From the IMG/VR virus record IMGVR_UViG_2703718794_000007: a DNA stretch of 39,067 bases; one strand, given 5' to 3'. The number at the start of each line of letters is the position of its first letter. Within the stretch, counting starts at the first letter, position 1. Both the position numbers and the translations under genes were made by a program. Source of the stretch: a virus (Duplodnaviria; Heunggongvirae; Uroviricota; Caudoviricetes). Below the pieces are notes generated by a model. That model saw only the letters and a program-made list of their open reading frames with translations. It searched no databases and was not told the DNA's origin. This document shows, piece after piece, positions 2,162 to 33,929 of this stretch.

Positions 2162-2494
2162 TTATCCTTTTGGTTTAGTAAGAAACACTAAAATTCCGAT
2201 AATGATATCGCCAATAACCCATAAACTTCCAATGGTAATTAAACCTAAGCCTGTACCAATAACTGCACCGGCTTTTTCGGCATCGGATGTAGCATTATTT
2301 ATTATTTCACTAGTGCCTCCCAGTCCAACTAAAAGCGTATAGATCATAAAAATATTAAATAATATAAAAATCCACTTAATGAGCTTTCCAAAAAATGAAC
2401 GCTTAAGTTTTTTTATTTGTTTACCGCAAGCAGGGCAATACAATGCTGAATCGCTCACCTCTTTCTGGCATTCAGGACATTTGATTAATGCCAT
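2162..2494 (-). CDS. Zinc-ribbon membrane protein
   Basis: 110-aa ORF; N-terminal CPEC...CPAC zinc ribbon followed by two hydrophobic helices; 4 bp upstream of the Cys-repeat gene, likely one operon. Confidence 0.55.
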   Translation of the reverse strand: MALIKCPECQKEVSDSALYCPACGKQIKKLKRSFFGKLIKWIFILFNIFMIYTLLVGLGGTSEIINNATSDAEKAGAVIGTGLGLITIGSLWVIGDIIIGILVFLTKPKG

Positions 2495-2724
2495 GTAATC
2501 CGCCTCCTTTGGATCAATACGAGTTGATATTTGTTACAAAACATTTTGATTTTATCAGATTTTTTTTTATTGATAAGTGTCAATTGATTAGCTGGTATAG
2601 AGTGAGACATAAAGAAGGTCAGATCTGTATCAGTAGTGATGCAAAAATCCCACAGTTTCATGGAATTTTTGCATTTAGAGCCGTGAGATAGGGTGCCTTA
2701 TCGACCTTACCCTGGCAACCGATT

Positions 2725-2746
2725 GACGGGGGATTACTCCCCCGTC
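2725..2746 (-). other. GC-rich stem-loop at the 3' end of the hok-like transcript
   Basis: GACGGGGGA-TTAC-TCCCCCGTC, 9-bp stem, just downstream of the hok-like stop on the minus strand. Confidence 0.4.
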
Positions 2747-2755
2747 GCGGTTTCC

Positions 2756-2896
2756 TTACTGCTTACACTGTAAGAACGCCGCAAACTCCGCTCCCCAGAA
2801 ACTCATCCGTATTTCGCACAGCGAACCGTGCAACATCCAGATGATGAGGATTACCGTCACGCAGAACGTGATGGCTGTAAGCGATTTTTGCGACAT
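2756..2896 (-). CDS. Hok/Gef-family type I toxin-like small membrane protein (46 aa)
   Basis: Hand-translated ORF below the 60-aa track cutoff: MSQKSLTAITFCVTVILIIWMLHGSLCEIRMSFWGAEFAAFLQCKQ; SLCEIR and E-x-AAFL-x-CK motifs are Hok-family hallmarks; AAGGAG RBS upstream. Confidence 0.6.
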   Translation of the reverse strand: MSQKSLTAITFCVTVILIIWMLHGSLCEIRMSFWGAEFAAFLQCKQ

Positions 2897-3086
2897 AGCA
2901 CTTGCTCCTTTTCCGGAGAGGCGCTAACCTTTCACTTGCTTAGGGTAGACGGTTAGGGCCTCGGTTAAACAAAAGTGTTTTCCGGGGCCTTTCCACATCT
3001 GGCCTTCGGGTATTCCCTCCGACCATCAGCCGAAAGGCACCCGCGCGTAATCTATCGCTTTTTTGTTACTCCGGCAATTCTGCTTG

Positions 3087-3347
3087 TTAATTCTTAGGTA
3101 AAGGCAAACTCATCTGATTGTTTCCCCTGTGTGAAGCTGGTAGCTCATGCCACGGGATACCTTCTGAAGAGTGAACGCCGGAGGCGTGTTTCGATGTGAA
3201 TTTATGGAAAGCTTCCAGTGTTGAGAAGCATACGCCGCATTCCAGATTGTTACACTGGTAATACTTTTGCCGCACGGTGTTTGAATCATTTTCCGGACGA
3301 CTTGTGCGGATACGGGCAGATGCGCCACAAAGCGGACAACGGAACAT
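3087..3347 (-). CDS. ogr: Ogr/Delta-family zinc-finger late transcription activator
   Basis: 86 aa; MFRCPLCGASARIRTSR...YYQCNNLEC matches the P2 Ogr C-x2-C...C-x4-C pattern. Confidence 0.85.
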   Translation of the reverse strand: MFRCPLCGASARIRTSRPENDSNTVRQKYYQCNNLECGVCFSTLEAFHKFTSKHASGVHSSEGIPWHELPASHRGNNQMSLPLPKN

Positions 3348-3538
3348 AGCGACCTCCCTTAACGTGGTGTTGCCGCTATTCTAGATTGTACGATCCCTAA
3401 TTCCAACTAACAGCTCGCTCTGTGCGAAGAGTGAAAATTGAACTTTCAATAGTTGTTGAACTTCCATACATCCAATGTGAAAATTCATACGTTCATAATA
3501 GTTAAAATTTAAAATATTGTATATCAGGTGAATAAAGC

Positions 3539-4561
3539 ATGGGAAGAGATATAACGCTGTACCCTAAAAAAGCAACTAGAAACGAACTTAAAAATTACCT
3601 TGAAAATTTAGGTTTTAAAAGGTGTAAACATTTGTGGGAATGGCCCCAAGGAACGTTGAATTACTCTTGGTTTGATGATACGGACTTCAAATCTACAGAT
3701 GGAGTTTCGGCTGATATATATCCTGTTTCAAATGACGAACTACACATATCTGGTAATAAATGGGCATTGCATGTGCGTAATTTATATAGCGCTAGTTGGC
3801 ATGATGTAAAAATGCTTAATGATGTTCTAAAAGGCGCACGGAGTCTTTTTGGTGGAACACTTATAGGTGATTATGGGAAAAATAGGTACGCTCCTCTATG
3901 GAAGGATTCTAGTAGTCCGATCAGTCGTGGCATTTCTTCAATATTTAATCATGTCCATCATGAGATTTCCGCTGTTAAACATGCCTTACCTGAACCTTCT
4001 ATTAAATTAAACCTACCGGAAGATGGCGGCTTATTCGAATACTTTGATTACATGCAATGTATGGATCCCAGTAGAGTTATATATAATGGATTAGTACCTT
4101 TTGCGGTTGCTATGTTTGAATATTTTTTCTCTAGAGCTTTTCAAATACTTATAAAGTACGATCCTTTCGCAATAGCAAAAAGAACATCGTATAAGCAAAA
4201 AGTTGATTTTGATATTCTGCTTGAGATAGAGAAAGGAAATATTTCAATAGAAAGTGTTATTGCAAGAAATTACACTTTTCAAAACTTAACCCACCTAAAC
4301 AAAGCATATAAAGAGTGGCTGGATATAGATGTGAGAGCGATTCTTTATAAGAAAAAAAGAATTGGAAAATCAGTTGATTTTCTTGAGAATCGAATTTCTG
4401 AAATCATACAATATAGACATGGGATAGTTCATCACTTTGAGTTGGATAGGACCTTAAATCGGGATGGATATATTCATATATTAGATGCGATAGAAAAAAG
4501 CATAATTGAATTTATCCATTACATAGAAGGCAAATACAAATTTAAATTAAATGCGTATTAA
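3539..4561 (+). CDS. Hypothetical cargo protein; possible C-terminal HEPN-like Rx4H motif
   Basis: 340-aa ORF, AT-rich, opposite strand to the flanking ogr and D; C-terminal YRHGIVHH; no family recognised. Confidence 0.65.
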   Translation: MGRDITLYPKKATRNELKNYLENLGFKRCKHLWEWPQGTLNYSWFDDTDFKSTDGVSADIYPVSNDELHISGNKWALHVRNLYSASWHDVKMLNDVLKGARSLFGGTLIGDYGKNRYAPLWKDSSSPISRGISSIFNHVHHEISAVKHALPEPSIKLNLPEDGGLFEYFDYMQCMDPSRVIYNGLVPFAVAMFEYFFSRAFQILIKYDPFAIAKRTSYKQKVDFDILLEIEKGNISIESVIARNYTFQNLTHLNKAYKEWLDIDVRAILYKKKRIGKSVDFLENRISEIIQYRHGIVHHFELDRTLNRDGYIHILDAIEKSIIEFIHYIEGKYKFKLNAY

Positions 4562-4681
4562 GCAATCAACCTTACATAGGGATGACAAAGTCCGCTTCTG
4601 ACACGGAGCGGACCGTCGTTTATGTTTAATTCTATACTGTAAACTTGCCAGTTTAAGTCTGAGCTAATATGTCTAAGTTGC

Positions 4682-5791
4682 TCACTCTGTTTCTGCTATC
4701 CATTCCGGGATTTTTGCCTCAAGCTCAAGCTGTGTGGTAAAGCCGCTGTTATCAATGGTGTGCTCGGCTTTTGCAATAATCCAGTCCTGATTATCAATCT
4801 CGCTTTTAAAGCCTGTTACCGTGCCATGCATTTCGGGGTAGAGTTCTGCGCGTCCGCGTGCCAGCATGATGGAGAATGATGCGGCTCCGCGTTGTAGCTG
4901 CTGCCACTTTGCCGCCGCTGCGCGTCTTGCTGCCTGCTCGTTCTGATAAGTCTTGCGTAACACAAACACATTGCCTTCCGCGCCTTCCATATAATCACCT
5001 TCACGGCTGCTGCTTTTCTCCTTTTTGGGTTTTGGCGGTTTGCGGCGTTTCACGCTGACTTTTTTCTTTTTCCCGTAATTAAGATCAAGCCAGTAGGCGC
5101 GTACACCTGTATACGCCTCGCGGTCAGCAATGCGGAACTGATGGCGATCGCCACTGCTGCGTGTAATGGCGAACGAGGGCAACGGCTGGCCCTGTGCGTT
5201 CACGCCACCACCTGGCATGATGAATAACAGATTGCCGCTTTTTACCGTGGTGATTGCGCCCAGCATTTCCGCCATGCGCGTAAGGAAGGACATGTCGCTT
5301 TCTTCGGTCTGGTCGGCGTGGTCGATTTCGATATCCATCAGCATTTCGCTGATTTGCGGTTTCAGACCATACCGATGAGCGATGGCGGATACCACACGCT
5401 CAACGGTCACATCATGCCAGGACACTTCACGTTTAACGTTAAATTCATCCCGAAAATCTGCGCTTCTGGCTGAAACCGTCAGCCTGTCCGGCGCTCCTTC
5501 GTGAGCGATTTCATCAACAATGTAAGTGCCTTTTTCTGTCAGCGGTTCTCCTTTCCAGCCAATGAGAACCGTCAGGCGCGCGCCCCGTGGCGGTAGCTGC
5601 AACTGACCATCCGCATCATCCAGCGTGATGGTGAGCTGGTCCGCTTCAAATCCCCGGTTGTCGGTCAGTGACAGGCTCATCAGGCGCTCTGCCACGCCGG
5701 ACAGTGTTTCCCCCTCCGCGAGAATATCAAAATCCGGCATTTTCACGGGGTCTGTGCTCTGACTGAGCAATTGCATGGTGGTATCGGTCAT
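4682..5791 (-). CDS. D: Tail/late control protein D (gpD)
   Basis: ORF 4682-5923; start placed at the in-frame MTDTTMQLL methionine with a GGGAGGG RBS; gpD family by memory. Confidence 0.85.
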   Translation of the reverse strand: MTDTTMQLLSQSTDPVKMPDFDILAEGETLSGVAERLMSLSLTDNRGFEADQLTITLDDADGQLQLPPRGARLTVLIGWKGEPLTEKGTYIVDEIAHEGAPDRLTVSARSADFRDEFNVKREVSWHDVTVERVVSAIAHRYGLKPQISEMLMDIEIDHADQTEESDMSFLTRMAEMLGAITTVKSGNLLFIMPGGGVNAQGQPLPSFAITRSSGDRHQFRIADREAYTGVRAYWLDLNYGKKKKVSVKRRKPPKPKKEKSSSREGDYMEGAEGNVFVLRKTYQNEQAARRAAAAKWQQLQRGAASFSIMLARGRAELYPEMHGTVTGFKSEIDNQDWIIAKAEHTIDNSGFTTQLELEAKIPEWIAETE

Positions 5792-11686: not shown

Positions 11687-12249
11687 ATGCTAAATAATAG
11701 AGATATGAATATTAATGAACTTAAAGATTGTATTCACTATGAAGTAATCGGTAGCGAGCGTCCTTTCTCTTGGCGAAAGGCAATTGTTCGCGCAATAAAA
11801 CATAGAAGGGTTCGTTATTTATTTTGGTGGCGCATAGCCAAATACTTTTTGATAAAGGCGGATACTGTCGGAAGATTGCGGGGAAAATAGAACGTTTCAT
11901 TCTTGATAAATATAATGTAACAGTCCCTTTAACTGTAAATATAGGGAAAGGCTTTGATATTTCTTATCTCAACAGTGTTGTTATCGGTCACAAAGTAACA
12001 ATCGGTGAAAATTGTTCAATAAAACCAGGGGTAACTATTGGGCTACGTGGTGATTTTAATGATATGGATATTGTTATAGGACATAATGTGACCATTGGTT
12101 GTAATGCCACCATTCTTGGTGGCAAAGTGCGTATAGGAAATAATGTCACAATAGGTGCTCATGCATTGGTATTGCATGATATTCCTGATGATTCAACATT
12201 CATCACTAAATTTCAGTCTGAAGTTATCTGCTCGTCCTCCCGTACATAA
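11687..12249 (+). pseudogene. Hexapeptide-repeat (WcaB/CysE-like) sugar O-acetyltransferase split by a frameshift
   Basis: ORF 11687-11890 carries the N-terminal YLFWWRIAKYF-type segment and ORF 11824-12249 the hexapeptide VIG/TIG repeats in another frame; AT-rich. Confidence 0.6.
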
Positions 12250-12836
12250 CCCTGATTCATCAGCTCTGGCCATACGATATCCGGAGCTGTACTGGTGTCA
12301 ATTCGACTCACTAATACTCTGTATTTTCTCCAGGAATCCAGTTGTGAATTTTCCTCGTTTGTTGCTATTTCAAGATTAACTGCATCCTGCAGAATTGCGA
12401 TGTTATCTGTTGCCTCCTGGATCAACCTTGCTTTTTTCTCTTCCGCTTCTCGTATCCGAAACAGTTTTTCTGCTTCCTCATCCTTCACCCAGGATACGCC
12501 GTCCCACCTCTGATACTCCCCTGCTGGCGACAACCAGGTGACATTCTCTGGTAGCGGTCCGAGTTCAGAAATAAACAATGCGTCCCCCGACGCCACGTCA
12601 TAGACCGTTTTACCACGATGGTCTTCAACAATATGCCACGATGCATCATCACTGTTGAAAACAGCCACGAAGCCAGCCGGAATATCTGGCGGTGCAATAT
12701 CGGTACTGTTTGCTGGCAGACCTGTATGAGGCGGAATGTATGCGTCACCTTCACCAATAAATTCATTAGTTCCGGCCAGCAGATTATAAATTGTTATGGT
12801 CCGTGGTTGTTCACTCATTCTGAAATCCATGTTCAC
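12213..12836 (-). CDS. Tail fibre assembly chaperone (gpG/Tfa family)
   Basis: 207-aa ORF downstream of the fibre genes; C-terminal [12 protein letters not shown] motif is typical of Tfa. Confidence 0.8.
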
Positions 12837-12838
12837 CT

Positions 12839-13741
12839 CTACTTAATATCAGAGACAGAATATTGTTTATTGAGCGTATGGGTGTGAGCACCAATAACGA
12901 TGCTACTTCCGTGGCTATGTGCGCCAGAGATGACATTACCTACGGGATTTTCTGGATTAATCCGGTGTATATGCGAACCAGGGCGAAACCGGTTATTAGC
13001 CTGATGTTGTATCAGTACATCATCAGCCTGATGTTCAGGGTTAATACAGACCTGCCCGGAACGTGAGCAATATGTCCGATAATCGCCGCATCCAATATAT
13101 TTAGTATCCGCATAACGGCAAACAGAATTACCCGGACAGTATGCATATGTGCCAAATACTGCCGACTGGCGGGATTGTGCGTATTCCCAGTTAATTGATT
13201 CTGTTTTTTTATTAAAGTTATCCCATGCCTGCTTCATCTGCCGGGCAACACTTTCAAACGGCACCTGACCACATCCGGCTCCCATTGCAGGGAATACCAC
13301 CGTTTTTATTTTCCTGTCTGTCGTTGCGTGTTTATTGTGCTGAAAGATGGCAAGCAGAGCGGCCCAGGTTGCGTTATATACAGCGTCTGTTCCGTCAATT
13401 GTCAGCGGAACACGCATTGTTGGCGCATGTACCAGCCAGGGATGATGATTATGCCCCGTTTCAATAACAAATGCAGAACCTACAGGCTGCTCGCCTAGAT
13501 ATTCACGAAGAATATGATTCTGAACGCGGGACTGTAACTGAGTACCGAAGAATGCGGTAATGGCGGCATCAACACCGCCATCCATCAGGCCGAAACTATT
13601 TGCCGCACTTACCATGCAGTCAAATTCCCTGATTGTTTCAAATGGCTTTCCGACAATATTCACATTATCTGCATTTGCGAATACCCGCTTAAATGCTTCA
13701 GCCATTTCTGTTACTGGTGCAGAAAGAATGAGCGTAATCAT
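12839..13741 (-). CDS. Macro-domain protein fused to a Cys/His-rich fibre-tip-like C-terminal domain
   Basis: 300 aa; N-terminal [17 protein letters not shown] and [14 protein letters not shown] match macro-domain motifs; C-terminus has three HxH motifs (GSHIHR, GAHSHG, GAHTHT) like those at the H C-terminus; ATGA-coupled to H. Confidence 0.75.
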
Positions 13742-15564
13742 GCAAGCCTCACAATATAGTTAAATGCGATGTTTTTGACAGTGTTTTCCGCGTTACCAGC
13801 AGCGTTAACGGTGATGGTGTGTCCATGTGAACCAATCGCAACAGAGTGCGTATGAGCGCCAATACCAACAGTGTGTGCATGTGCCCCAGCACTTGTAGCG
13901 GTACCTGATACTGAGTGGGTATGTGCGCCAGAAGAAGGCACAGTTCCATTCCCCACCACCGTGCCACTTGATGAACCATCCAGCCAGTCGAAATTCATAC
14001 CGCCACTGTTTGATCTCCTTAATGGAACGGTATGAGTATGTGCGCCAGCACTATTTGCAGTACCAGATACATTATGGGTATGTGCACCTGTGTTATTCGT
14101 TGATTTAGTACCGTAATCAAACGACGATGTGGTTTTCGTACCCAAATCCGTACTGGATGCGCTGGCGCTGTGGGTGTGCGATTTAATGCCATCCTGTTCC
14201 TGAGACAATACGGCCCGACCAGTGGCGGGTTTTCCTTTGATTGTCCAGCCACGCATATCAGGGAGCACACCAGAGGGATAAGCTACTGCAAGTTTCGGGT
14301 ATGCTGATTTGTCAAAAGCCTGTCCCACCATGATAGCGTAACCGTCAGGCGGCGTATCTGACGGCCACGGCAGAGGTATTCCCGGTGGTAATGCTTCAAT
14401 TCCCTTTGTGCCATCAAAAGCAACACCACTGATGGGGTGTGCTGTTTCCAGTTTACTTGCAGATACTGCGTTACCTGTTGCGGATAATGCGCCAATATCC
14501 TGCACTGTGGGCTTGTTTTTATCCGTGTAAGTGCGGTACCAGATGGTTTTTTTTCCCTTGTCCAGTATCACCCCGGTAAATTGTGCCCGGTGTTCTTTTG
14601 TGGTCGGATCTGAATCTTCCAGCCCTGTGGTGATCCTGACTATTCCGCCGATGATTTCGCCAAACACTTCAATCAGGCAGCCGCCCAGGCCGATATCACC
14701 GTACCCCGTGTCAGTAAGCACGCAGTGCTGTGACAGCGAAATATTAGCCCTGAATATCCAGCTCCCTGTTCTGAAGGCGCCACGCTCATTCAGCCACTCC
14801 ACGAATTGTTCCGTTGTCCAGCGTTGTCCTGCTTTACCTATGTACCCGTTTTTTGCATAAACGCGTGGTGTGCCCACGTTGATCAGGAACAGCTCCTTGT
14901 TGGGGATGTCCTCACCATTGCGGTTTTTCGCAAGCCGACCATCAGCGTTGTCCATGGCGATCTTTATGGCCTTTGGCGTGGCTGCCTGGGTCTCTGATGT
15001 ACTGGTGGTGTCGCTGCTTAACTGAGTAAAACCTTTTGTGGTCAGCGAGGCATCCGGGTGACGTCGTGACTGTTCATGCTCTTTCAGTTTGTCATCCACG
15101 TAATCCACTGTGGCCATCACCATGGTGTTATCCACGGTAAGCGCCACGGTGGCAGTGCTGGATACGGTCAGAATGGTGCGAAATGTTTGTGCACGTCCGG
15201 ACCCTTCGGCAACGGTTGGTTTGTAACTTTCGGCAGTATTGCCCACCGCGATTAAATCGCCGTGCTCATCAAATACACCAATTTCCCGGATCCAGAATCC
15301 GCCCGTTTCAGGAGGAATAACCAGCTCCGCAATAATGCGGTTCTGATGTGTTGCGTCCAGGATGACGCGATTAACAGTGTTTCGCCACACCTCATGCACC
15401 AGACGGATCTGCTTACTGTCTGGTGTGGGCAACGTGCCGCCACCGTCGCCCACGGCCATATGAGTCAGGCGGACAGGCTTACCATCTGGCGCGGCTGCCT
15501 GAGCTAATTTTTTTGCACCCGTATCGGTGATAACGGTTTTAAATTTTCGTGTTGTGGTACTCAT
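13738..15564 (-). CDS. H: Tail fibre protein H
   Basis: 608 aa; conserved N-terminus and C-terminal GAHTH repeats. Confidence 0.85.
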
Positions 15565-27312: not shown

Positions 27313-27811
27313 AAGACAGCCTCCATTGATTTCTTTGCTCGTATTTTGCACTTATGAAGTATGGTCGGCAAGGTGCCGTATCGCTGACGCGCTTCGCTTG
27401 TCTGCTGCTTCGCCGGGGCATAAAAAATTTATGCCCCGGCTCTCCAGCTCCTGTATCAATCAGATAATTTCACGACGCCTTCCAGTTTATCGCCACCATC
27501 GACGGTCAGACTCTTACGCAATTCCACCGCGTTGACTGTATGTTCTCGCTGCCTCAGTGCGATTTTGACGGCCTTACCTTTCACCCCATCAAATCAAAAG
27601 CCCTCACGCCTTTTTCATGCTCAGCGTGAGAAATATGGCCATTCTGTTGTGTCTCTGCGACATCGTTCAGGGAATGCTATTTACCCCCTGAAACGCGGGC
27701 TGTTCCCCCGTCACCTGCGCGCAGAAAAAACGCGTTTTTTTGTGCACGCACGGATCCTTGACGGATCCAGCCGCCACGCGGGCCGGAAGGGCAAAAAGTC
27801 GTTCAAAAAAA

Positions 27812-27848
27812 TTGTGCAAATTTGTGCACTATTGTGCATTGCGCACTT
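27812..27848. repeat. Three TTGTGCA direct repeats at exact 10-bp spacing plus a GCGCAC variant
   Basis: TTGTGCA at 27812, 27822 and 27832; contains the palindrome TGCAAATTTGCA. Confidence 0.5.
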
Positions 27849-27857
27849 GTTATAAAT

Positions 27858-27886
27858 AAACAAAAAAAGAGCCGCTATTGCGGCTC
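27858..27886 (-). terminator. Intrinsic terminator of the HTH-peptidase/PIN operon
   Basis: On the minus strand, 7-bp stem GAGCCGC/GCGGCTC followed by a T-run, 34 nt after the PIN stop. Confidence 0.6.
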
Positions 27887-27919
27887 AATATAATCCAATA
27901 TGGCAAGAGAGATTTGGAT

Positions 27920-28438
27920 TCATTCGAAACTGGCAAGAATCTGTTCTCGAACAGAAGATTTCATCGTTAACCCACGATCTAGGAAAAATTGGAAATGCAT
28001 TAAGGCTTGTTGTTTGTGGATAAGTCTCCTGTGCACAGCCTCTTGAAGTAGCCCTCCGTGGCGGGCGGCTTTTACACCGCGTTCCGCACACGTTTTATAA
28101 ACCGCATTATCCGCCGAAAGACATGTTGCATCATGTATTCTCGCGTTAACAACGCAGCTTATGTCCGCATACTTCAATGCTCTCCTGCGATTTTTTATCT
28201 CAGCCATTTCAATAAAATGTTCAGGTTCGTAATCATTGGTGAAATTGTATGGAAGTTGCAGGCGTGTAAGCTGTTCCTGAACATCAAGATTGTATTTAGC
28301 TTTTAGTTCCTCGCAGACATAGGGGTCAATCCACACACCACCCGGGTAAATTTGCCAGATAAGATCTAAGCATTTACCTTCGTAAAAATCAGACAGTACA
28401 TTCGTATCGATAACACATCTGGGGCATTCAAACGGCAT
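27920..28438 (-). CDS. PIN-domain protein (putative toxin/nuclease)
   Basis: ORF 27920-28471; from MPFECPRCVIDTNVLSD it shows the PIN-type N-terminal Asp motif and a later HDAT acidic motif; start overlaps the upstream gene. Confidence 0.7.
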   Translation of the reverse strand: MPFECPRCVIDTNVLSDFYEGKCLDLIWQIYPGGVWIDPYVCEELKAKYNLDVQEQLTRLQLPYNFTNDYEPEHFIEMAEIKNRRRALKYADISCVVNARIHDATCLSADNAVYKTCAERGVKAARHGGLLQEAVHRRLIHKQQALMHFQFFLDRGLTMKSSVREQILASFE

Positions 28439-29573
28439 CCTCTCCGGCCTCCTGTTCGTCGTACCATTCATCCAGAAGATTGCTGAGAGCTTTTCTGTCT
28501 AATTCTAAAAGTTCAGATATGAAGGTTTCCGACGCGGAACCGGCTTCCCATGCTTTACGCGATAAGACGGTTAGGCGGCCTTTATAATTTAGTGCTTCCC
28601 TAATGGGATTTGGCTCGTGTCTCTTCCAACCTTTACGATTGGCGGTTGCCCATAGGTATCTAGTGTTTTGTTGATTAATTAAATTACATTTACTAAGACG
28701 ATCGATGATGCAAGTGGCTGATACTCTGAAAATGCTTTTTAGTCTAAGGACGGTTTCCTCATACGCCCATCCACCACCTTGCATGACGAATTGTTTTCGC
28801 AATGCGCTTTCTGGTACCAAAAAACAAGCAGCAAAGTGATTAGCAACTTTTTCTTCCGGTGAAATTGCTTTGCCATTGGTTTTATAGCTTTTAGCAGGGC
28901 CATCATACTCATCACGGTGGAAGATAAGATGAGCATATTCATGGCAAATACTGAAGATTTGACGTTCTATTGAAATGCTATCGTGAACATTTACATAAAT
29001 CGCGGTACCGTATTTGTTCGAAAACGCAGAAAATCCGAATACCATCCCTTTATCAGTTTCTTCGCGATTGAACGGGATTACTCGAATATCCGATGCTTCC
29101 AAAATGGCTACAATGTCACCAACGCAAGTAGCGTTTCCTATACCGAGACGGAAACGTTCTTCCATAGCCTTATCTTCGACTCTTCGCAAATCTTCTGCTT
29201 TGGCGGTAAAAATAGGCATTGAGTTAGGAAGATCTTCTGGCAAATTAGCATCTGCAGCTTCCTCAATTGCATTGATATTTTTTAACTTTTCAATCAACTC
29301 ATTGCGAAGTTTGGCATCCAACAAATCCGGACTATCTGCTCGCATTGCAAAACGAAACTCGCCATCATCTTGCTCATAAAAATACCCGATAGGCTTATCG
29401 AAAATCTTGCAGAGCATGATGAGTTGGGTAACGCTTGGGACGCCTAGCGCCTGCTCAAACTTACTGTAGGTTTGACGAACAACACCGATCGCATCTGCGA
29501 CGGCGCTTGCACTCATTCCTGCGTCGTTTCTGGCCTGAACCAAGCGTTCTGCTATACGCTGTTGAATGTTCAT
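28428..29573 (-). CDS. XRE-family HTH fused to an ImmA/IrrE (COG2856) zinc metallopeptidase
   Basis: 381 aa; N-terminal helix-turn-helix (MSASAVADAIGVVRQTYSKFE) and HEYAH zinc-binding motif mid-protein. Confidence 0.75.
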   Translation of the reverse strand: MNIQQRIAERLVQARNDAGMSASAVADAIGVVRQTYSKFEQALGVPSVTQLIMLCKIFDKPIGYFYEQDDGEFRFAMRADSPDLLDAKLRNELIEKLKNINAIEEAADANLPEDLPNSMPIFTAKAEDLRRVEDKAMEERFRLGIGNATCVGDIVAILEASDIRVIPFNREETDKGMVFGFSAFSNKYGTAIYVNVHDSISIERQIFSICHEYAHLIFHRDEYDGPAKSYKTNGKAISPEEKVANHFAACFLVPESALRKQFVMQGGGWAYEETVLRLKSIFRVSATCIIDRLSKCNLINQQNTRYLWATANRKGWKRHEPNPIREALNYKGRLTVLSRKAWEAGSASETFISELLELDRKALSNLLDEWYDEQEAGEDAV

Positions 29574-29754
29574 ACGTCACCTGAATTTAACAATGGTGGC
29601 TCTTATGGGTTTAGATTGGTTAATTATTACTAACATTATGAATGGAGAGTTGCAAAAATCATAGTTAAATTATGCAAATTTCATGGAGCGTGATGTGGTG
29701 TGGGTTCACACTCTCTGCTGATTACATCTAGGGCGGTTTCCGCCCTGGCTCTGC

Positions 29755-30066
29755 TTACTCAGGAAATAGCGCCCGGATATTTCCGGCCATCTGACTGGTT
29801 ATCTGTGCGGTTGATACTGGCTGTGATGCGGGGCGTTCTGTCCTAGTTTGTGTCACTGATAACGCTTCATCATCAGCCCATGCAGCCAGTCGGTAAGCCT
29901 CTGCCGGATTCATTTTCAGAAGTGCCAGCCCGGCCAGAAAAGCCACACGTTGGCCGCTTTTGCGGGCTTCTGGTGTAAGGCTGTCCAGCCAGGCGCATGC
30001 TTCGCCTTCGTTCTTTACGGCGGCGGGCTTCAGATAGAAACTTATTCGTCTGGTTGGTGTCGTCAT
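29755..30066 (-). CDS. parR: ParR-like partition adaptor
   Basis: ORF 29755-30201; from MTTPTRRISFYLKP the sequence matches my recollection of R1 ParR (LDS..ER...AFLAGLAL, C-terminal LFPE); directly after parM. Confidence 0.7.
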   Translation of the reverse strand: MTTPTRRISFYLKPAAVKNEGEACAWLDSLTPEARKSGQRVAFLAGLALLKMNPAEAYRLAAWADDEALSVTQTRTERPASQPVSTAQITSQMAGNIRALFPE

Positions 30067-30070
30067 TGGT

Positions 30071-31030
30071 TTACTCCTTGTCCATTGCGTACAGCCCATT
30101 AACCAGAGCAAACTGTGGCACCCCGTCCGCGATGAAAGTCGCATTAACTCCGCAGGCTTCGCGGATAGCGGGTGCCACAATCTCCGCCCCGCCACCGACA
30201 ACCATCACCCGCCCGTAACCCGAAAAACCCGCCAGCGCGCGGATCACGCGTTGTTTCAGTGTTTCTTCCTTTTCACGAATAACCGCCATCAGGCTGGCGT
30301 AATGCGCGTCATTGTGGATGTGCTGGCGCAGCCAGGCTTCATCATGGCGATGTTCGATAATGGTATTGGCGATGTGGTGACTGGTACGCATACCGTTAGT
30401 GGCCATCACCGACAGTACGGCATCGGCCATCAGGGAAACGCCTACGTGTGGATCGCAAAACACCTGGCTGATACCTGCCAGTTGTCCCTGAACCTTTGCC
30501 ACATCCAGCGTGGTTCCGCCCAAATCCACAATCAGCAGGGATTCAAACGGACTCATGTCAGCCAGTGCTTTAAAACCAGCCGGAATGGATTCAGGCATAA
30601 CCCGTACGTTACGGATAGTGAATGCTTGTCCGTTCTGGTAGGCCACCGGGCGCATGACGTTTGCTTTTTTGCGGTTGATGTTGGCCATGTCCGGCTGTGC
30701 GTTTGTGTCGAAATATTCGCTCAGTGGCAGGGTGACAACCACATCCACCTCCTGTGGTGTGATGCCTGATTTGACCAGCGCGTGATGAATGGCAATGACA
30801 TTCACATCGCTGTACTGGTATTGCGTGTCGGTCGTCTGGACAAAGCGATCGCTGACCGGATCAAAACCATAGCGCACGCCATCAAGCATGTAGTTCGCGG
30901 GCTGCGTGCCACCGAACGGCGCAGACCATTCCGACTTGAAGCTGTTCGGGCTGATGGCGTTGCGGCGTTCGCCGTTCTCAGTCCATGCCAGCTTGATGTT
31001 GGTGGAGCCGTCATCGATACAAATTTTCAT
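30071..31030 (-). CDS. parM: ParM/StbA-like actin-fold segregation ATPase
   Basis: 319 aa; MKICIDDGSTNIKLAW, VMPESIPAG, LIVDLGGTTLD and VVGGGAEI match ParM motifs. Confidence 0.8.
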   Translation of the reverse strand: MKICIDDGSTNIKLAWTENGERRNAISPNSFKSEWSAPFGGTQPANYMLDGVRYGFDPVSDRFVQTTDTQYQYSDVNVIAIHHALVKSGITPQEVDVVVTLPLSEYFDTNAQPDMANINRKKANVMRPVAYQNGQAFTIRNVRVMPESIPAGFKALADMSPFESLLIVDLGGTTLDVAKVQGQLAGISQVFCDPHVGVSLMADAVLSVMATNGMRTSHHIANTIIEHRHDEAWLRQHIHNDAHYASLMAVIREKEETLKQRVIRALAGFSGYGRVMVVGGGAEIVAPAIREACGVNATFIADGVPQFALVNGLYAMDKE

Positions 31031-31061
31031 GTCGCTTTTCCTTATGTTGATTAATTAATCG

Positions 31062-31170
31062 TTTACGGGATTCTGAAATCCCGTTTTTGCCTGTTTTATG
31101 CGCGCTTCATATATCGCGGCGCGTTTTTTGCTCATTTACGGGATTTGTGAATCCCGTTTCTGTCTGTTTT
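31062..31170. repeat. Two 36-bp direct repeats, each an 8-bp-stem dyad followed by a T-rich tail
   Basis: Copies at 31062-31097 and 31135-31170 (ACGGGATT-N4-AATCCCGT); copy 1 is between the A stop and parM start, copy 2 is inside the last codons of A. Confidence 0.45.
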
Positions 31171-33929
31171 TTGTTTCCACTGGTCAGGCCACCCCGCAGC
31201 AGGTCTGCTTTGCGGCGGGCGCGTTCAGTGGTTTCACTGATTCTCTGTGCGTGCTCTGCGTCGCGGATGGCGCGCAGCATGTCAGAAAGCACGGTAACGG
31301 GGGTTTTCATGGTGTTCTGGTCCTGCTGAAGTGTGGATGCCAGGCGTGCGGCGGCTTCGGGGTCTGATGCCCCCAGCTGTTCCAGATAGCTGGCGACCGG
31401 GTTATGGCGGATCTCCGTGCTGCTTACGCCGTGGTTACGGCTCAGGCGCTGCCAGAGATGCGTGATCCGGCTGTCCGGTCGGGTATCCGGTTTGCGTACA
31501 ATTTCAAATCCCTGCGGTGCAATGATGCTGCCGTCAACGTACAGACTGCCGCCCCGTAACAGGTGCTGCATCTGCTGTTCACCGATATGCAGGCCGAGAG
31601 ATTCAGCAGACTCCCGCCATTCTTTAGCGAGTAATTCGTGGTTATCAGGCAAAGGCCGCTGCTGTTTGCGGCTCTGTGTCCAGCTCTGCATTTCATCACT
31701 GCTGTTTTTTACCTGTTTGTCACGAAGCGAACGCATCAGCGCCCGGCGTTCGTGCCGTTTCAGTGAGCGCATCCATTCGTTCACTTCAACGCCGTCAGGG
31801 AGTTGCGGCCACGGTGCTGGCCGTTCTTCCGGCTGTTCTGTCCCGTTGTTGTCCGTTTCCTGTACACGGGGACAGTTATTGCCACGAGTCCAAGGGGCGG
31901 CAGGGCCGCCCTGAAGGTCAAAACCATTTTCGCGGGCGCTGTCTTCCGCTTCCGGTTTACGTCTTACCAGCTTCCAGTTATCCGGGTGCGTGCACACGCG
32001 GGAAGACTCCCCGATGAGCGGCGACCAGATCCCGTAAATCTGTACACTCTGCTCGCCGTAATCGTTCATCTCATCTGCGAGGTCGTAGGCGGTGCGAATC
32101 AGGTAGTCTTTGCGTGGAACAAGTACGCCACCCTGTTTCTCAATGTAGGTGGCAAAACATCCGGCATCAGCGGCAGCGAGTACCGCGTCCATTGCGTCAT
32201 CCTTCAGCCGTTGCGGGCCTTCCGGGTTGCGTGCCATCTGGCTGGCAAGGCGGCGCAGTTCACGCCACACCTGACGGGAGGGGATACCAAAGAACTGGAA
32301 CTGGCGGACCCGGTGAAGGCGCGCCCAGCCGATGGCGCGTTCCACGCTCTCGGCCATTGATTTTCCGGTTTCGTGGTCAACGCGTGGCTTGCCCGTTTTC
32401 GGGTCGATGCCATCCACGGCGCGGCTGTCCAGGTTCTTTCCGATGTAGGTGGCGATGTAGCTGGTTGGTGTGCCTTTTGAGCCGTCGACATACTCCACCT
32501 TAAAGCGCGGAGTAATATCATTGCCCAGCTCGTGGCGGTCTTCCTGAATGGCAATATCGCGGGTGATGGCCACGATGCTGTCGATTTCTTCCGGATGAGC
32601 AAAGACCATCATGTGCCAGTGCACGGTGCCGTCATGGTGAGGCTCCACCGTGCGGATGCCATACCAGCGCAGGCCGTCGCGGTTCAGTTTTTTGCGGACC
32701 GCCGCAAAAAACGTGTTAACCAGGTAATCGCTGGAGTCGCGCATGGTGGCCCCGTTCCATTTGGGGTTCGGATGACCGTTCTCCGTTGTTGCGTGGTATT
32801 TTGACGGGCAGGTGACAGTCAGAAACACCGCTCTGTCGCCACGGGCTTCGGCCAGAAGTTCCAGTCCCTTCATGGTGGCCATCATTTCTGCCTTACGGTG
32901 AACCGGGTTACTTACTCCCGCGTAATACACCGTCTCGAGATCAATCGTGAACCCGTCTTCATTTTCCAGCATGAAACTTTTCAGGAAATCGCGTGTTTTC
33001 TCGCGCTGTGCGCGAAACTCGCTTAACGCGTCCTGGCTCAGATAGGGCGATGTTTTTCTGGAAACCAGACAGGCGGCGCGGAGTTGTTCTTCTCTCCACT
33101 CGCAACGTACCAGCCACAATTTGCGTTTCCACCATTCCGCACAGGTCAGGCGAAGGATTGCGCCCGGCAGCAGCTCCGTGTCCGGTTCGTTCCTCCGGTC
33201 TTTGTCTGTTGTCAGTGCGTCATAATGTGGAGGCATGGCGTGCAGGTGTAACGCCATGCGGGCCAGCATCTGATACGCCTTCAGCGTTACATCCATGGTC
33301 AGTTCACCATCAGTCGCGCCAAAGCCATCGCAGAGTTTTTCGAAGGTGCTGCTGAACATCGCCGCCGTCATGGTGGCCAGCGTCTGTATCTGGTGTTTGT
33401 TGAGCTGCGGCAGGTAAAGCAAATCGTCCAGGCGTTCGCGTCCGGCAAGGGAGCGATAACCCGGTGTCAGCCAGCGTCCGTCAGTGCGATCCAGACGTTC
33501 GAATATTTTGCGCAGGGTTCCGCGTGCATAGCGTTCCGCCTGCCAGCTCTTTTTGCCTTTCCGGCGATCGGCTTCCTGTTTTTTGCGCAGGAAGGAGAGG
33601 TGGCGAATAAGCGGATCGCGCAGATAGGACGGCAGCAGGCGCAGCGAGGCCATGGCTTCATCCACCGCGCCGCGTGCCTGTTTTCTGGCGTCTCCTGCCA
33701 GTGTGATGGTTTTGTCCTGTTTTTCCTGTGCGTCCAGGCTTTTATTAATCAGGCCGCCCAGCGGCGTGGCGGAGAACGCCGCATCAGCCATTTCCTGGCG
33801 GCGCTCGTTCTCTGCCCGGTAGGCATCCAGCCAGGAGGAAAGCGCGGATTCAGGAGCGGGGATCCCCGTTCCTTCACGCCCCACTGCGTGGCGCGGTTGT
33901 TGCCAGTCCCTGATGTACTCTGCCGTCAT
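31107..33929 (-). CDS. A: Replication initiator A (rolling-circle HUH endonuclease)
   Basis: 940 aa; HWHMMVF and YIATYIGK motifs typical of the P2 gpA family. Confidence 0.8.
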   Translation of the reverse strand: MTAEYIRDWQQPRHAVGREGTGIPAPESALSSWLDAYRAENERRQEMADAAFSATPLGGLINKSLDAQEKQDKTITLAGDARKQARGAVDEAMASLRLLPSYLRDPLIRHLSFLRKKQEADRRKGKKSWQAERYARGTLRKIFERLDRTDGRWLTPGYRSLAGRERLDDLLYLPQLNKHQIQTLATMTAAMFSSTFEKLCDGFGATDGELTMDVTLKAYQMLARMALHLHAMPPHYDALTTDKDRRNEPDTELLPGAILRLTCAEWWKRKLWLVRCEWREEQLRAACLVSRKTSPYLSQDALSEFRAQREKTRDFLKSFMLENEDGFTIDLETVYYAGVSNPVHRKAEMMATMKGLELLAEARGDRAVFLTVTCPSKYHATTENGHPNPKWNGATMRDSSDYLVNTFFAAVRKKLNRDGLRWYGIRTVEPHHDGTVHWHMMVFAHPEEIDSIVAITRDIAIQEDRHELGNDITPRFKVEYVDGSKGTPTSYIATYIGKNLDSRAVDGIDPKTGKPRVDHETGKSMAESVERAIGWARLHRVRQFQFFGIPSRQVWRELRRLASQMARNPEGPQRLKDDAMDAVLAAADAGCFATYIEKQGGVLVPRKDYLIRTAYDLADEMNDYGEQSVQIYGIWSPLIGESSRVCTHPDNWKLVRRKPEAEDSARENGFDLQGGPAAPWTRGNNCPRVQETDNNGTEQPEERPAPWPQLPDGVEVNEWMRSLKRHERRALMRSLRDKQVKNSSDEMQSWTQSRKQQRPLPDNHELLAKEWRESAESLGLHIGEQQMQHLLRGGSLYVDGSIIAPQGFEIVRKPDTRPDSRITHLWQRLSRNHGVSSTEIRHNPVASYLEQLGASDPEAAARLASTLQQDQNTMKTPVTVLSDMLRAIRDAEHAQRISETTERARRKADLLRGGLTSGNKKQTETGFTNPVNEQKTRRDI

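Follow-up and report, generated by a model that had tools for sequence, protein, structure and literature searches.

Phage macrodomains have recently been shown to act as counter-defence enzymes, those described being DarG-like. Members of this AdfM group (T4 Tk.4, PhiKZ gp104 and PhiPA3 gp108) neutralise DarT2 by reversing DNA ADP-ribosylation, and that of PhiKZ is expressed late. As stand-alone phage-encoded macrodomains used for counter-defence, they offer a working model for phage macro enzymes. The Macro2 type has a sole studied member, yeast Ymx7 (YMR087W; PDB 1njr), an ADP-ribose-1''-phosphate phosphatase that converts Appr-1''-p to ADP-ribose and is devoid of de-MARylating activity (PMC6397177). 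Ymx7 is a eukaryotic cellular protein with extra insertions and without a Cys/His tail, and its likeness to the phage members is one of sequence and predicted fold.

Phage tail fibres can be accompanied by small accessory proteins, whose genes lie just after the fibre gene and are expressed together with it, such as the gp38 adhesin of T2 and S16 and the Tfa/gpG/U chaperones that stay on the tip. The fibres and spikes themselves can end in HxH repeats (T4 gp37 tip, R-pyocin fibres, P2 gpV apex; PF03335), in which iron is coordinated between three chains.

Elements of both worlds meet in a gene of the window, the 39,067-nt stretch of viral DNA that was analysed. The element surrounding it is a P2-family prophage with FI-FII-E-T-U on the plus strand and V-W-J-I-H on the minus strand, a layout that resembles the Senquatrovirus phages SEN4 and SEN5. 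The gene encodes a macrodomain followed by a cysteine- and histidine-rich tail and lies between the tail fibre gene H and the chaperone gene tfa (Table 1). Direct homologues occupy the same position with the same 4-nt overlap in Gifsy-1 of S. Typhimurium LT2 (STM2588.1n, 70% identity) and in SEN5 (SEN5_19, 64%). Both are already annotated as Macro-domain proteins; they differ in being 274 aa long, in lacking a 28-aa insertion within which the window protein has its first HxH motif, and in their last ~30 residues.

An optional cassette between the fibre and chaperone genes

Table 1. Features of the fibre–macro–tfa region, in coordinates of the window
Feature	Coordinates	Strand	Details and basis
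Macro-domain ORF	12839..13741	minus	300 aa + stop, ATG start; ORF list
Macro domain proper, aa 1-199, Macro2/Ymx7-type by sequence and predicted fold	13145..13741	minus	
Cys-rich segment, aa 200-243	13013..13144	minus	C202, C208, C225, C232; conservation, AF2, dN/dS
Variable fibre-like tail, aa 244-300	12839..13012	minus	G[AS]HxH at aa 255, 273, 284
Cassette missing from sibling prophage, ~906 nt	12831..13736	minus	blastn of window vs L004; boundaries ambiguous by a few bases (micro-homology)
GAGG Shine-Dalgarno of the macro ATG	13747..13750	minus	5 nt upstream of ATG; junction sequence
GAGG Shine-Dalgarno of tfa, from cassette 3' end (TAGAGGTGAACATG)	12836..12839	minus	junction sequence
P2-type tail fibre H, 608 aa	13738..15564	minus	Pfam Phage_tail_fib, Phage_fiber_2, Collar, Phage_fiber
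Tail fibre assembly protein Tfa	12213..12830	minus	Caudo_TAP E=3.4e-39; start taken as ATG at 12830, as in the RefSeq call for a homologue; GTG at 12836 also open
Hexapeptide-repeat transferase (O-acetyltransferase-like moron), convergent with tfa	11705..12249	plus	Pfam Hexapep

The stop codon of H and the start codon of the macro gene overlap as ATGA (GCATGATT), and the GAGG serving the macro ATG sits within the final H codons (V-R-L-A). At the other end, the macro stop is separated from the tfa ATG by 8 nt that include the second GAGG; the junction TAGAGGTGAACATG is also present in two other loci, L007 and L003. A fusion of H to the macro protein by -1 frameshifting was considered and rejected: a TAA stands in the macro frame seven codons upstream of the ATG and no slippery heptamer lies between. 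Neither a promoter nor a terminator of its own convincingly flanks the ORF, the 8 promoter-like sites detected being set against 6.8 ± 2.3 expected. This lack of a promoter is atypical for a moron. GC content falls to 0.42-0.49 at the cassette, compared with 0.55-0.60 in the baseplate and tail genes, and is likewise lower in the fibre tip and tfa.

The extent of the cassette can be read from a sibling prophage of the same type in E. coli 14EC020 (L004), which has no macro gene and in which H directly abuts tfa (GCATAATGG). The two prophages are closely related on either side, the last 219 residues of the H tips being 89.5% identical and the Tfa proteins 94%. In blastn, homology between the window and L004 stops at 13737 and restarts at 12830, the flanks being 93-94% identical; since these flanks abut in L004, the window is longer here by about 906 nt. 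The extra DNA consists of the macro ORF and the 8-nt spacer with a new Shine-Dalgarno sequence for tfa, which in the macro-less L004 is served by the GAGG in the last fibre codons. The macro gene is thus an optional cassette with clean boundaries, as are the morons and accessory cassettes of temperate phages. The initial annotation had the gene translationally coupled to H, ahead of the Tfa chaperone and inserted between the two; the ATGA overlap, the Caudo_TAP gene 8 nt downstream and the exact breakpoints in the H-to-tfa comparison agree with it on each count. An insertion into the H-then-chaperone order also makes the product a mosaic, as had been proposed, and the fibre-tip-like tail on a macro domain bears this out. 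That the ORF might be an assembly chimera is contradicted by its intact presence in 127 complete E. coli genomes.

The next gene beyond tfa, the hexapeptide-repeat transferase, is a neighbour of the cassette and not part of it, being found in the macro-less sibling as well. It has matches below cut-off to NCBIfam models of the serine/colanic-acid acetyltransferase type, and it is frameshifted in the window by a 1-nt deletion near 11844 relative to an intact gene in another locus (L005).

Of 5426 complete E. coli genomes, 128 have the macro gene, with 109 locations on chromosomes and 22 on plasmids; some part of the surrounding 4.7 kb is matched in 4364 genomes. The same fibre-ATGA-macro-tfa triplet occurs in quite different phages: in lambdoid Gifsy-1, where it follows the side tail fibre, in the Salmonella phage SEN5 (Senquatrovirus), in Escherichia phage Chuche, in a P1-like phage-plasmid and in two further myovirus-type prophages, of Salmonella and Erwinia. 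A lambdoid E. coli prophage with the order J-lom-stf-macro-tfa carries a macro gene 99.9% identical to that of the window, and window positions 13930..12265 (fibre tip, macro gene and tfa) are 93% identical to the lambdoid locus. The triplet loci compared (six besides the window) have in common the fibre end ...TVKNIA[FY]NYIVRLA and the junction GTGAGGCTNGCATGATTA. Homologous recombination between such conserved flanks explains the fixed address of the gene, so position alone does not prove a fibre function. Degraded copies exist too, namely a frameshifted one in p1919D3-2 and a relic in SEN34, and a 1-nt indel converts the ...NKQ-stop ending of the Chuche protein into the different C-terminal end of the window protein.

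The macro domain and its relatives

An N-terminal macro domain had been proposed from sequence motifs, and profile search and structure prediction both support it. Pfam Macro (PF01661) matches aa 44-169 over profile positions 1-118 of 118 with E=7.7e-19 and 68.2 bits (cut-off 22), and PHROG 2613 (phrog_2613, function unassigned) matches aa 1-270 with E=1.2e-148. An AlphaFold2 monomer built from a 99-sequence alignment gives a pLDDT of 95-98 for residues 1-199, which are predicted to adopt the three-layer alpha/beta/alpha macro fold, strand beta-1 starting at residue 3. The two ADP-ribose loops, N-x6-GGV-D and G-x-G-x-G, are present as N48, G55-G56-V57-D58 and G154-A-G-C-G158. The profile alignment sets N48, D58 and H105 opposite N80, D90 and H145 of Ymx7, residues that reportedly, from the 2005 structure paper, are required for Ymx7 activity. 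Among 99 relatives, N48, G56, D58 and G158 are retained in 98-99 and H105 in 73.

The macro domain is nearer to Ymx7, at 21% identity, than to other macro clades. Pfam Macro_2 (PF14519) reaches 24.0 bits with the window protein, which is under its 27-bit cut-off, and many family members have a precomputed PF14519 match. By sequence and predicted fold, the domain is of the Macro2 type (Ymx7/YMR087W-like). Assignment to the MacroD/YmdB enzymes (MacroD1/2, O-acetyl-ADP-ribose deacetylase) was rejected, as all nine NCBIfam equivalog models stay far under their cut-offs, the best of them at 51.8 bits where 246 are required. The DarG/AdfM type was rejected as well: the PADLOC DarG model matches aa 139-176 only (E=0.0048, 14.4 bits), no stretch passes alone, and DarG is not the nearest structure. 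The AdfM enzymes, which are DarG-like, therefore differ in class from the Macro2-type window protein. In a viral structure library the best matches were giant-virus macros, a 'putative tail protein' of Pseudomonas phage Noxifer and PhiPA3 gp271; the last of these is distinct from the AdfM protein of the same phage, gp108.

Homologues are numerous. A word-indexed search returned 1712; among the best 120 of these, Escherichia and Salmonella account for most and Citrobacter and Erwinia for a few, under the names 'macro domain-containing protein' or 'phage tail protein'. For the 'tail protein' names given to relatives we came across no supporting evidence. An exhaustive search gave 2357 relatives, mostly stand-alone macros of ~200 aa that cover aa 1-195 only; in some, the macro domain is joined to a WD40, RRM, Hpt or rhodanese-phosphatase domain. 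Only the enterobacterial prophage clade has the Cys/HxH tail. Among relatives without it, the closest (64% identity) is encoded by a phage in a group of ParB_N and methyltransferase genes beside terminase, and not in a tail locus. Two more distant relatives (P0131 and P0133) lie on short contigs with uninformative context.

The gene had been thought to lack a precedent. For the databases this is not so, given the 1712 homologues, PHROG 2613, the Gifsy-1 record and the RefSeq name 'macro domain-containing protein' in a locus that is 99.2% identical; for the literature it apparently stands, and we found no functional study of the macro family there. STM2587, which figures in the operon list of a 2007 microarray paper, was not used as a record of the macro ORF, its identity being unconfirmed. 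What had not been described before is a Macro2-type domain that is joined to both a Cys4 segment and HxH repeats of the fibre type and whose gene keeps one place in fibre operons, whether of P2-like, lambdoid or P1-like phages.

The cysteine-rich segment and the HxH motifs

The region that follows the macro domain was originally noted as Cys-rich with three HxH motifs like those of the H tip, and this description stands up to counting and to profile comparison. It contains five cysteines (C202, C208, C218, C225 and C232). Out of 110 family representatives, 108-110 share C202, C208, C225 and C232, and 17 share C218. A beta-hairpin is predicted at 211-225 (AlphaFold2 strands 211-217 and 220-225, pLDDT 55-75), and the four conserved cysteines may bind a metal as a Cys4 site or pair up in two disulfides.

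When the C-terminal 105 aa were shuffled 100000 times, three G[AS]HxH motifs never arose, so their number is more than chance would place there. The second and third are family-wide (H275/H277 in 105 of 110 representatives, H288 likewise in 105), while the first is limited to an E. coli subclade, inside a 28-residue insertion. The four cysteines together with two HxH motifs are retained in at least 105 of the 110 representatives, across Escherichia, Salmonella, Citrobacter and Erwinia. Individual family members carry 2-5 repeats, often with the 9-residue period of the fibre tip, as in Salmonella variants. The H tip of the window itself has six G[AS]HxH motifs at aa 493-582, and H matches Pfam Phage_fiber with E=6.9e-7. 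Compared by hhalign with a profile of eight fibre tips, the macro-tail profile aligns with 92.5% probability and E=4.8e-7, in a short alignment of low diversity that pairs macro aa 252-299 with H aa ~543-599, the last HxH repeats of the tip. Pfam Phage_fiber (PF03335) itself gave no match to the window tail and E=1.7 and 2.8 with two relatives. The motif and, in several members, the 9-residue period are thus those of the fibre and spike repeats; unlike these, the macro tail has only 2-5 repeats and is joined to an enzyme and not to a fibre shaft.

Searched by itself, the module turns up nowhere else: tblastn of the C-terminal 105 aa against phages returned just the same macro proteins and the relic in SEN34, from which it follows that the Cys/HxH module is not a free-standing fibre domain. 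A word-indexed search with the C-terminal 120 aa alone gave 4 matches, all of them fragments or chimeras. The AlphaFold2 monomer has a pLDDT below 50 for residues 239-300, and a deeper family alignment did not help, lowering the pLDDT to 28-64 for aa 200-300. Such a failure is expected of a metal-dependent oligomer and is equally compatible with disorder.

Pairwise dN/dS is 0.07-0.20 in the macro domain, 0.11-0.52 in the Cys segment and 0.30-0.64 in the tail. Values below 1 in all three parts mean that every part is constrained, and the tail diverges quickest, as fibre tips do. A tail type matched to the type of the adjacent fibre tip can be ruled out, because Gifsy-1 (L001) and another locus, L010, have near-identical fibre tips and different macro tails; the macro tail is therefore not tuned to the tip sequence.

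Possible roles of the protein

The reading that we favour, with a probability of somewhat under one half (about 0.45), is that the cassette encodes an optional, late-expressed hydrolase of an ADP-ribose derivative that works inside the infected cell, its tail being a metal-dependent oligomerisation or targeting module. The cassette sits exactly where the conserved 3' end of the fibre gene (...NYIVRLA-stop) meets the start codon of tfa, and these conserved flanks let it move between unrelated phages by homologous recombination. The macro protein would be made only with the late fibre operon, the GAGG in the last fibre codons driving its ATG and the cassette supplying a replacement GAGG for tfa. 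The product, a Macro2-type macrodomain with intact ADP-ribose-site residues followed by a putative Cys4 knuckle and 2-5 G[AS]HxH repeats, may act late in infection as an accessory enzyme on ADP-ribose-1''-phosphate or on a host-made ADP-ribosyl adduct or signal, plausibly in counter-defence. Its fibre-derived tail would bind metal and trimerise the enzyme as in fibres, possibly helped by the downstream Tfa. Of this picture, the analysis establishes the anatomy, the optional presence and mobility of the gene, its macro class, the conserved active-site residues and purifying selection; catalysis, substrate, oligomeric state, metal binding and biological role are inferences.

Several observations are consistent with an intracellular enzyme. 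The optional presence with exact breakpoints, the mobility, the Macro2 class and the retained active-site residues under purifying selection count in favour of this reading. Most of the 2357 relatives are stand-alone macros, the location of the closest tail-less relative among ParB and methyltransferase genes points to an intracellular substrate, and by analogy the role of AdfM makes counter-defence feasible for a phage macrodomain, although the window protein belongs to another clade. That the tail is functional is counted in favour, on the grounds that the Cys4 and two HxH motifs are conserved, that its profile resembles fibre tips and that it could not be modelled as a monomer. On the other side of the balance, the window protein falls outside the DarG-like type (14.4 bits for no more than a partial match to the DarG model), and a cytoplasmic enzyme has no obvious need for a fibre-like tail. 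Expression confined to the late phase is awkward for a protein directed against early-acting defence systems, and the absence of an own promoter is unusual for a moron. To our knowledge, Macro2-type enzymes have been shown to dephosphorylate Appr-1''-p only, and we know of no established role of Appr-1''-p in phage defence.

The main competitor, which corresponds to the virion association originally suggested, places the protein on the fibre or in its assembly. The tail, together with metal and Tfa, would form a short trimeric needle docked on or co-assembled with the fibre, or else it would direct the enzyme to fibre-assembly intermediates; we hold this possible but unlikely. In the needle form each virion fibre would bear three macro domains, an additional module with which to bind or hydrolyse a glycan or ester at the surface, and in the other form the enzyme would clean ADP-ribosyl adducts off the intermediates. 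Every tail-bearing member sampled lies in a fibre operon, and in no other setting, which fits a physical link to the fibre better than an intracellular role does, and the closest tail-less relative is located elsewhere in its phage. In the profile comparison the macro tail matches the final HxH repeats of the tip, and it keeps its HxH motifs while the residues between them vary. Coupling to H implies a similar timing of synthesis, and a tail that cannot be modelled as a monomer is what an obligate oligomer would give, the HxH repeats of T4 gp37, R-pyocin fibres and the P2 spike being generally known to hold iron between three chains. However, the same fibre tip and Tfa work without the macro gene in L004, tail type is unmatched to tip type (L001 versus L010), and there is no room for an N-terminal attachment domain, beta-1 beginning at residue 3. 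The active site is moreover conserved with cytosolic enzymes (40-64% identity), which argues for an intracellular ADP-ribose substrate beyond the reach of an extracellular fibre, and the 'tail protein' names are database labels. The proposal that the HxH tail serves as a loading signal, trimerising with metal and Tfa and docking the enzyme on tail fibres or assembly intermediates, strikes us as rather unlikely.

A role as an assembly factor appears improbable. On that account the protein, as a second such factor, would help the HxH tip of the fibre encoded before it to fold or to take up metal, and the macro domain would be a passenger or have a regulatory part. The gene is indeed co-translated from between the fibre and chaperone genes, the tail mimics the fibre tip and the Cys/His-rich segment could bind metal; yet the gene is dispensable, near-identical tips and Tfa proteins occurring without it and only 128 of 5426 genomes carrying it, no similarity to Caudo_TAP or other chaperone families was found, and the strongest purifying selection falls on the macro domain. 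Identity with the Tfa/gpG/U-type chaperones was rejected directly, as Caudo_TAP does not match the macro ORF and does match the next gene. The macro protein shares with these chaperones and with gp38 a small size and a place just downstream of a co-expressed fibre gene; it differs from them in lacking any sequence or fold similarity, in being dispensable for this fibre type and in having an enzyme fold with a cytosolic-type active site. Very improbable, finally, is a mere scar of recombination, in which a macro gene landed in a fibre 3' end and retained a functionless HxH remnant, or the whole ORF is a decaying passenger. The fast evolution of the tail, its length changes by indels (as between Chuche and the window) and the degraded copies in p1919D3-2 (frameshift) and SEN34 (relic) would suit such a scar, but they stand against an ORF intact in 127 complete E. 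coli genomes, dN/dS below 1 in all three parts, and a Cys4 and two HxH motifs kept in at least 105 of 110 representatives over four genera.

Whichever reading applies, Macro2 is the least studied macro clade, and it has been taken up by temperate enterobacterial phages that include Gifsy-1 of S. Typhimurium LT2. Once identified, the substrate would provide a first function for Macro2 among bacteria or phages, and it could uncover a late-acting defence or signal of the host that is based on ADP-ribose. Should the tail prove to load the enzyme onto fibres, this would be a new way to decorate receptor-binding proteins. The protein would then be the first ADP-ribose-processing macrodomain on, or acting on, a phage receptor-binding organelle, either as a virion-borne enzymatic add-on or as a repair enzyme that strips host ADP-ribosylation from fibre proteins. 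Clean pairs of loci with and without the gene, together with culturable phages (Chuche, SEN4/5 and Gifsy-1), make the question directly testable.

Indels, relics and fusions of the macro gene

The end of the macro protein is set by a single-base indel, AAACAATATTC versus AAACAATAATTC: the form encoded by the Chuche-type locus ends in NKQ at 289 aa, whereas that of the window extends further, to 300 aa. Since one base is enough to switch between the two ends, the last residues are evolutionarily labile.

What is left of the Cys-rich segment in the Salmonella phage SEN34 is a relic of 49 aa (59 % identical) that adjoins an O-acetyltransferase gene, away from any intact macro gene, and provides evidence of an earlier decay of the macro cassette. 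On the P1-like phage-plasmid p1919D3-2, whose backbone is 98.8 % identical to that of phage RCS47, the annotation marks a frameshift in the macro gene, and the fibre gene upstream of it is fragmented into partial pieces. Pieces of the macro protein also occur in odd fusions (P0018, P0124 and P0261). They join macro sequence to ParM/StbA (463 aa, from one 8.4-kb contig), a macro fragment to LexA_DNA_bind (104 aa) and the macro C-terminus to DUF1441 (190 aa), and are probably rearrangements or assembly chimeras.

Coordinates of the features discussed (L003, Chuche-type locus; L006, p1919D3-2; L008, phage locus of the closest tail-less macro relative; L009, SEN34)
Feature	Location	Strand	Remarks
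Indel region, window type	window 12839-12865
Indel region, Chuche type	L003 5850-5900
Relic of Cys-rich segment	L009 4001-4147
Frameshifted macro gene	L006 6001-6892
Cluster with tail-less macro gene	L008 2104-7161
LPS GlcNAc-transferase and DapH-like acetyltransferase	L006 7532-9218	opposite tfa	P1-like plasmid
O-acetyltransferase	L009 2751-3842	opposite tfa	SEN34
Hexapeptide-repeat "transferase"	window 11705-12249	+	O-acetyltransferase-like moron; convergent with tfa; GC ~0.36

Macro relatives elsewhere in phages

Of the relatives that lack the tail, P0125 is the closest to the macro domain (64 % identity). It belongs to a phage gene cluster located just upstream of the large terminase gene and comprising ParB_N, a gene for a 460-aa methyltransferase, the macro gene itself, one unknown gene and another ParB_N. 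The cluster has the appearance of a region devoted to DNA modification or anti-restriction. The Pseudomonas phage PhiPA3 possesses two distinct macrodomain proteins: gp108 is the DarG-like AdfM, while gp271, which is among the BFVD matches, resembles the Macro2-type protein of the window. No evidence was found for the name "tail protein" given to the jumbo-phage relatives (Noxifer, PA1C, phiRSL1).

Accessory genes of a near-identical prophage

The prophage of strain 2013C-3181 is 99.2 % identical to the window over the 4.7 kb compared. Its accessory genes, whose content is taken from that prophage and corresponds roughly to window 2400-5500 and 27500-33000, include a Com/DNA-methyltransferase pair, a TM2-domain protein, a Hok/Gef toxin, a PIN-domain and HTH pair, and ParM fragments. 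Because the annotation gives its replication endonuclease a frameshift and its gpD-like gene appears truncated, this type of prophage, as read from the 2013C-3181 copy, may be defective.

Surface-polysaccharide genes beside tfa

The opposite strand directly after tfa is a recurrent home of genes that modify surface polysaccharides, as seen on p1919D3-2, in SEN34 and in the window. The gene is intact in strain 2013C-3181, where it encodes 181 aa. By comparison, the window transferase has a 1-nt deletion that shifts the frame near 11844 and breaks it into two ORFs (11687..11890 and 11824..12249), which reflects either a pseudogene or a sequencing error. As the transferase is also found in the macro-less sibling prophage of E. 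coli 14EC020, it is the locus, rather than the macro gene, with which the polysaccharide genes are linked.
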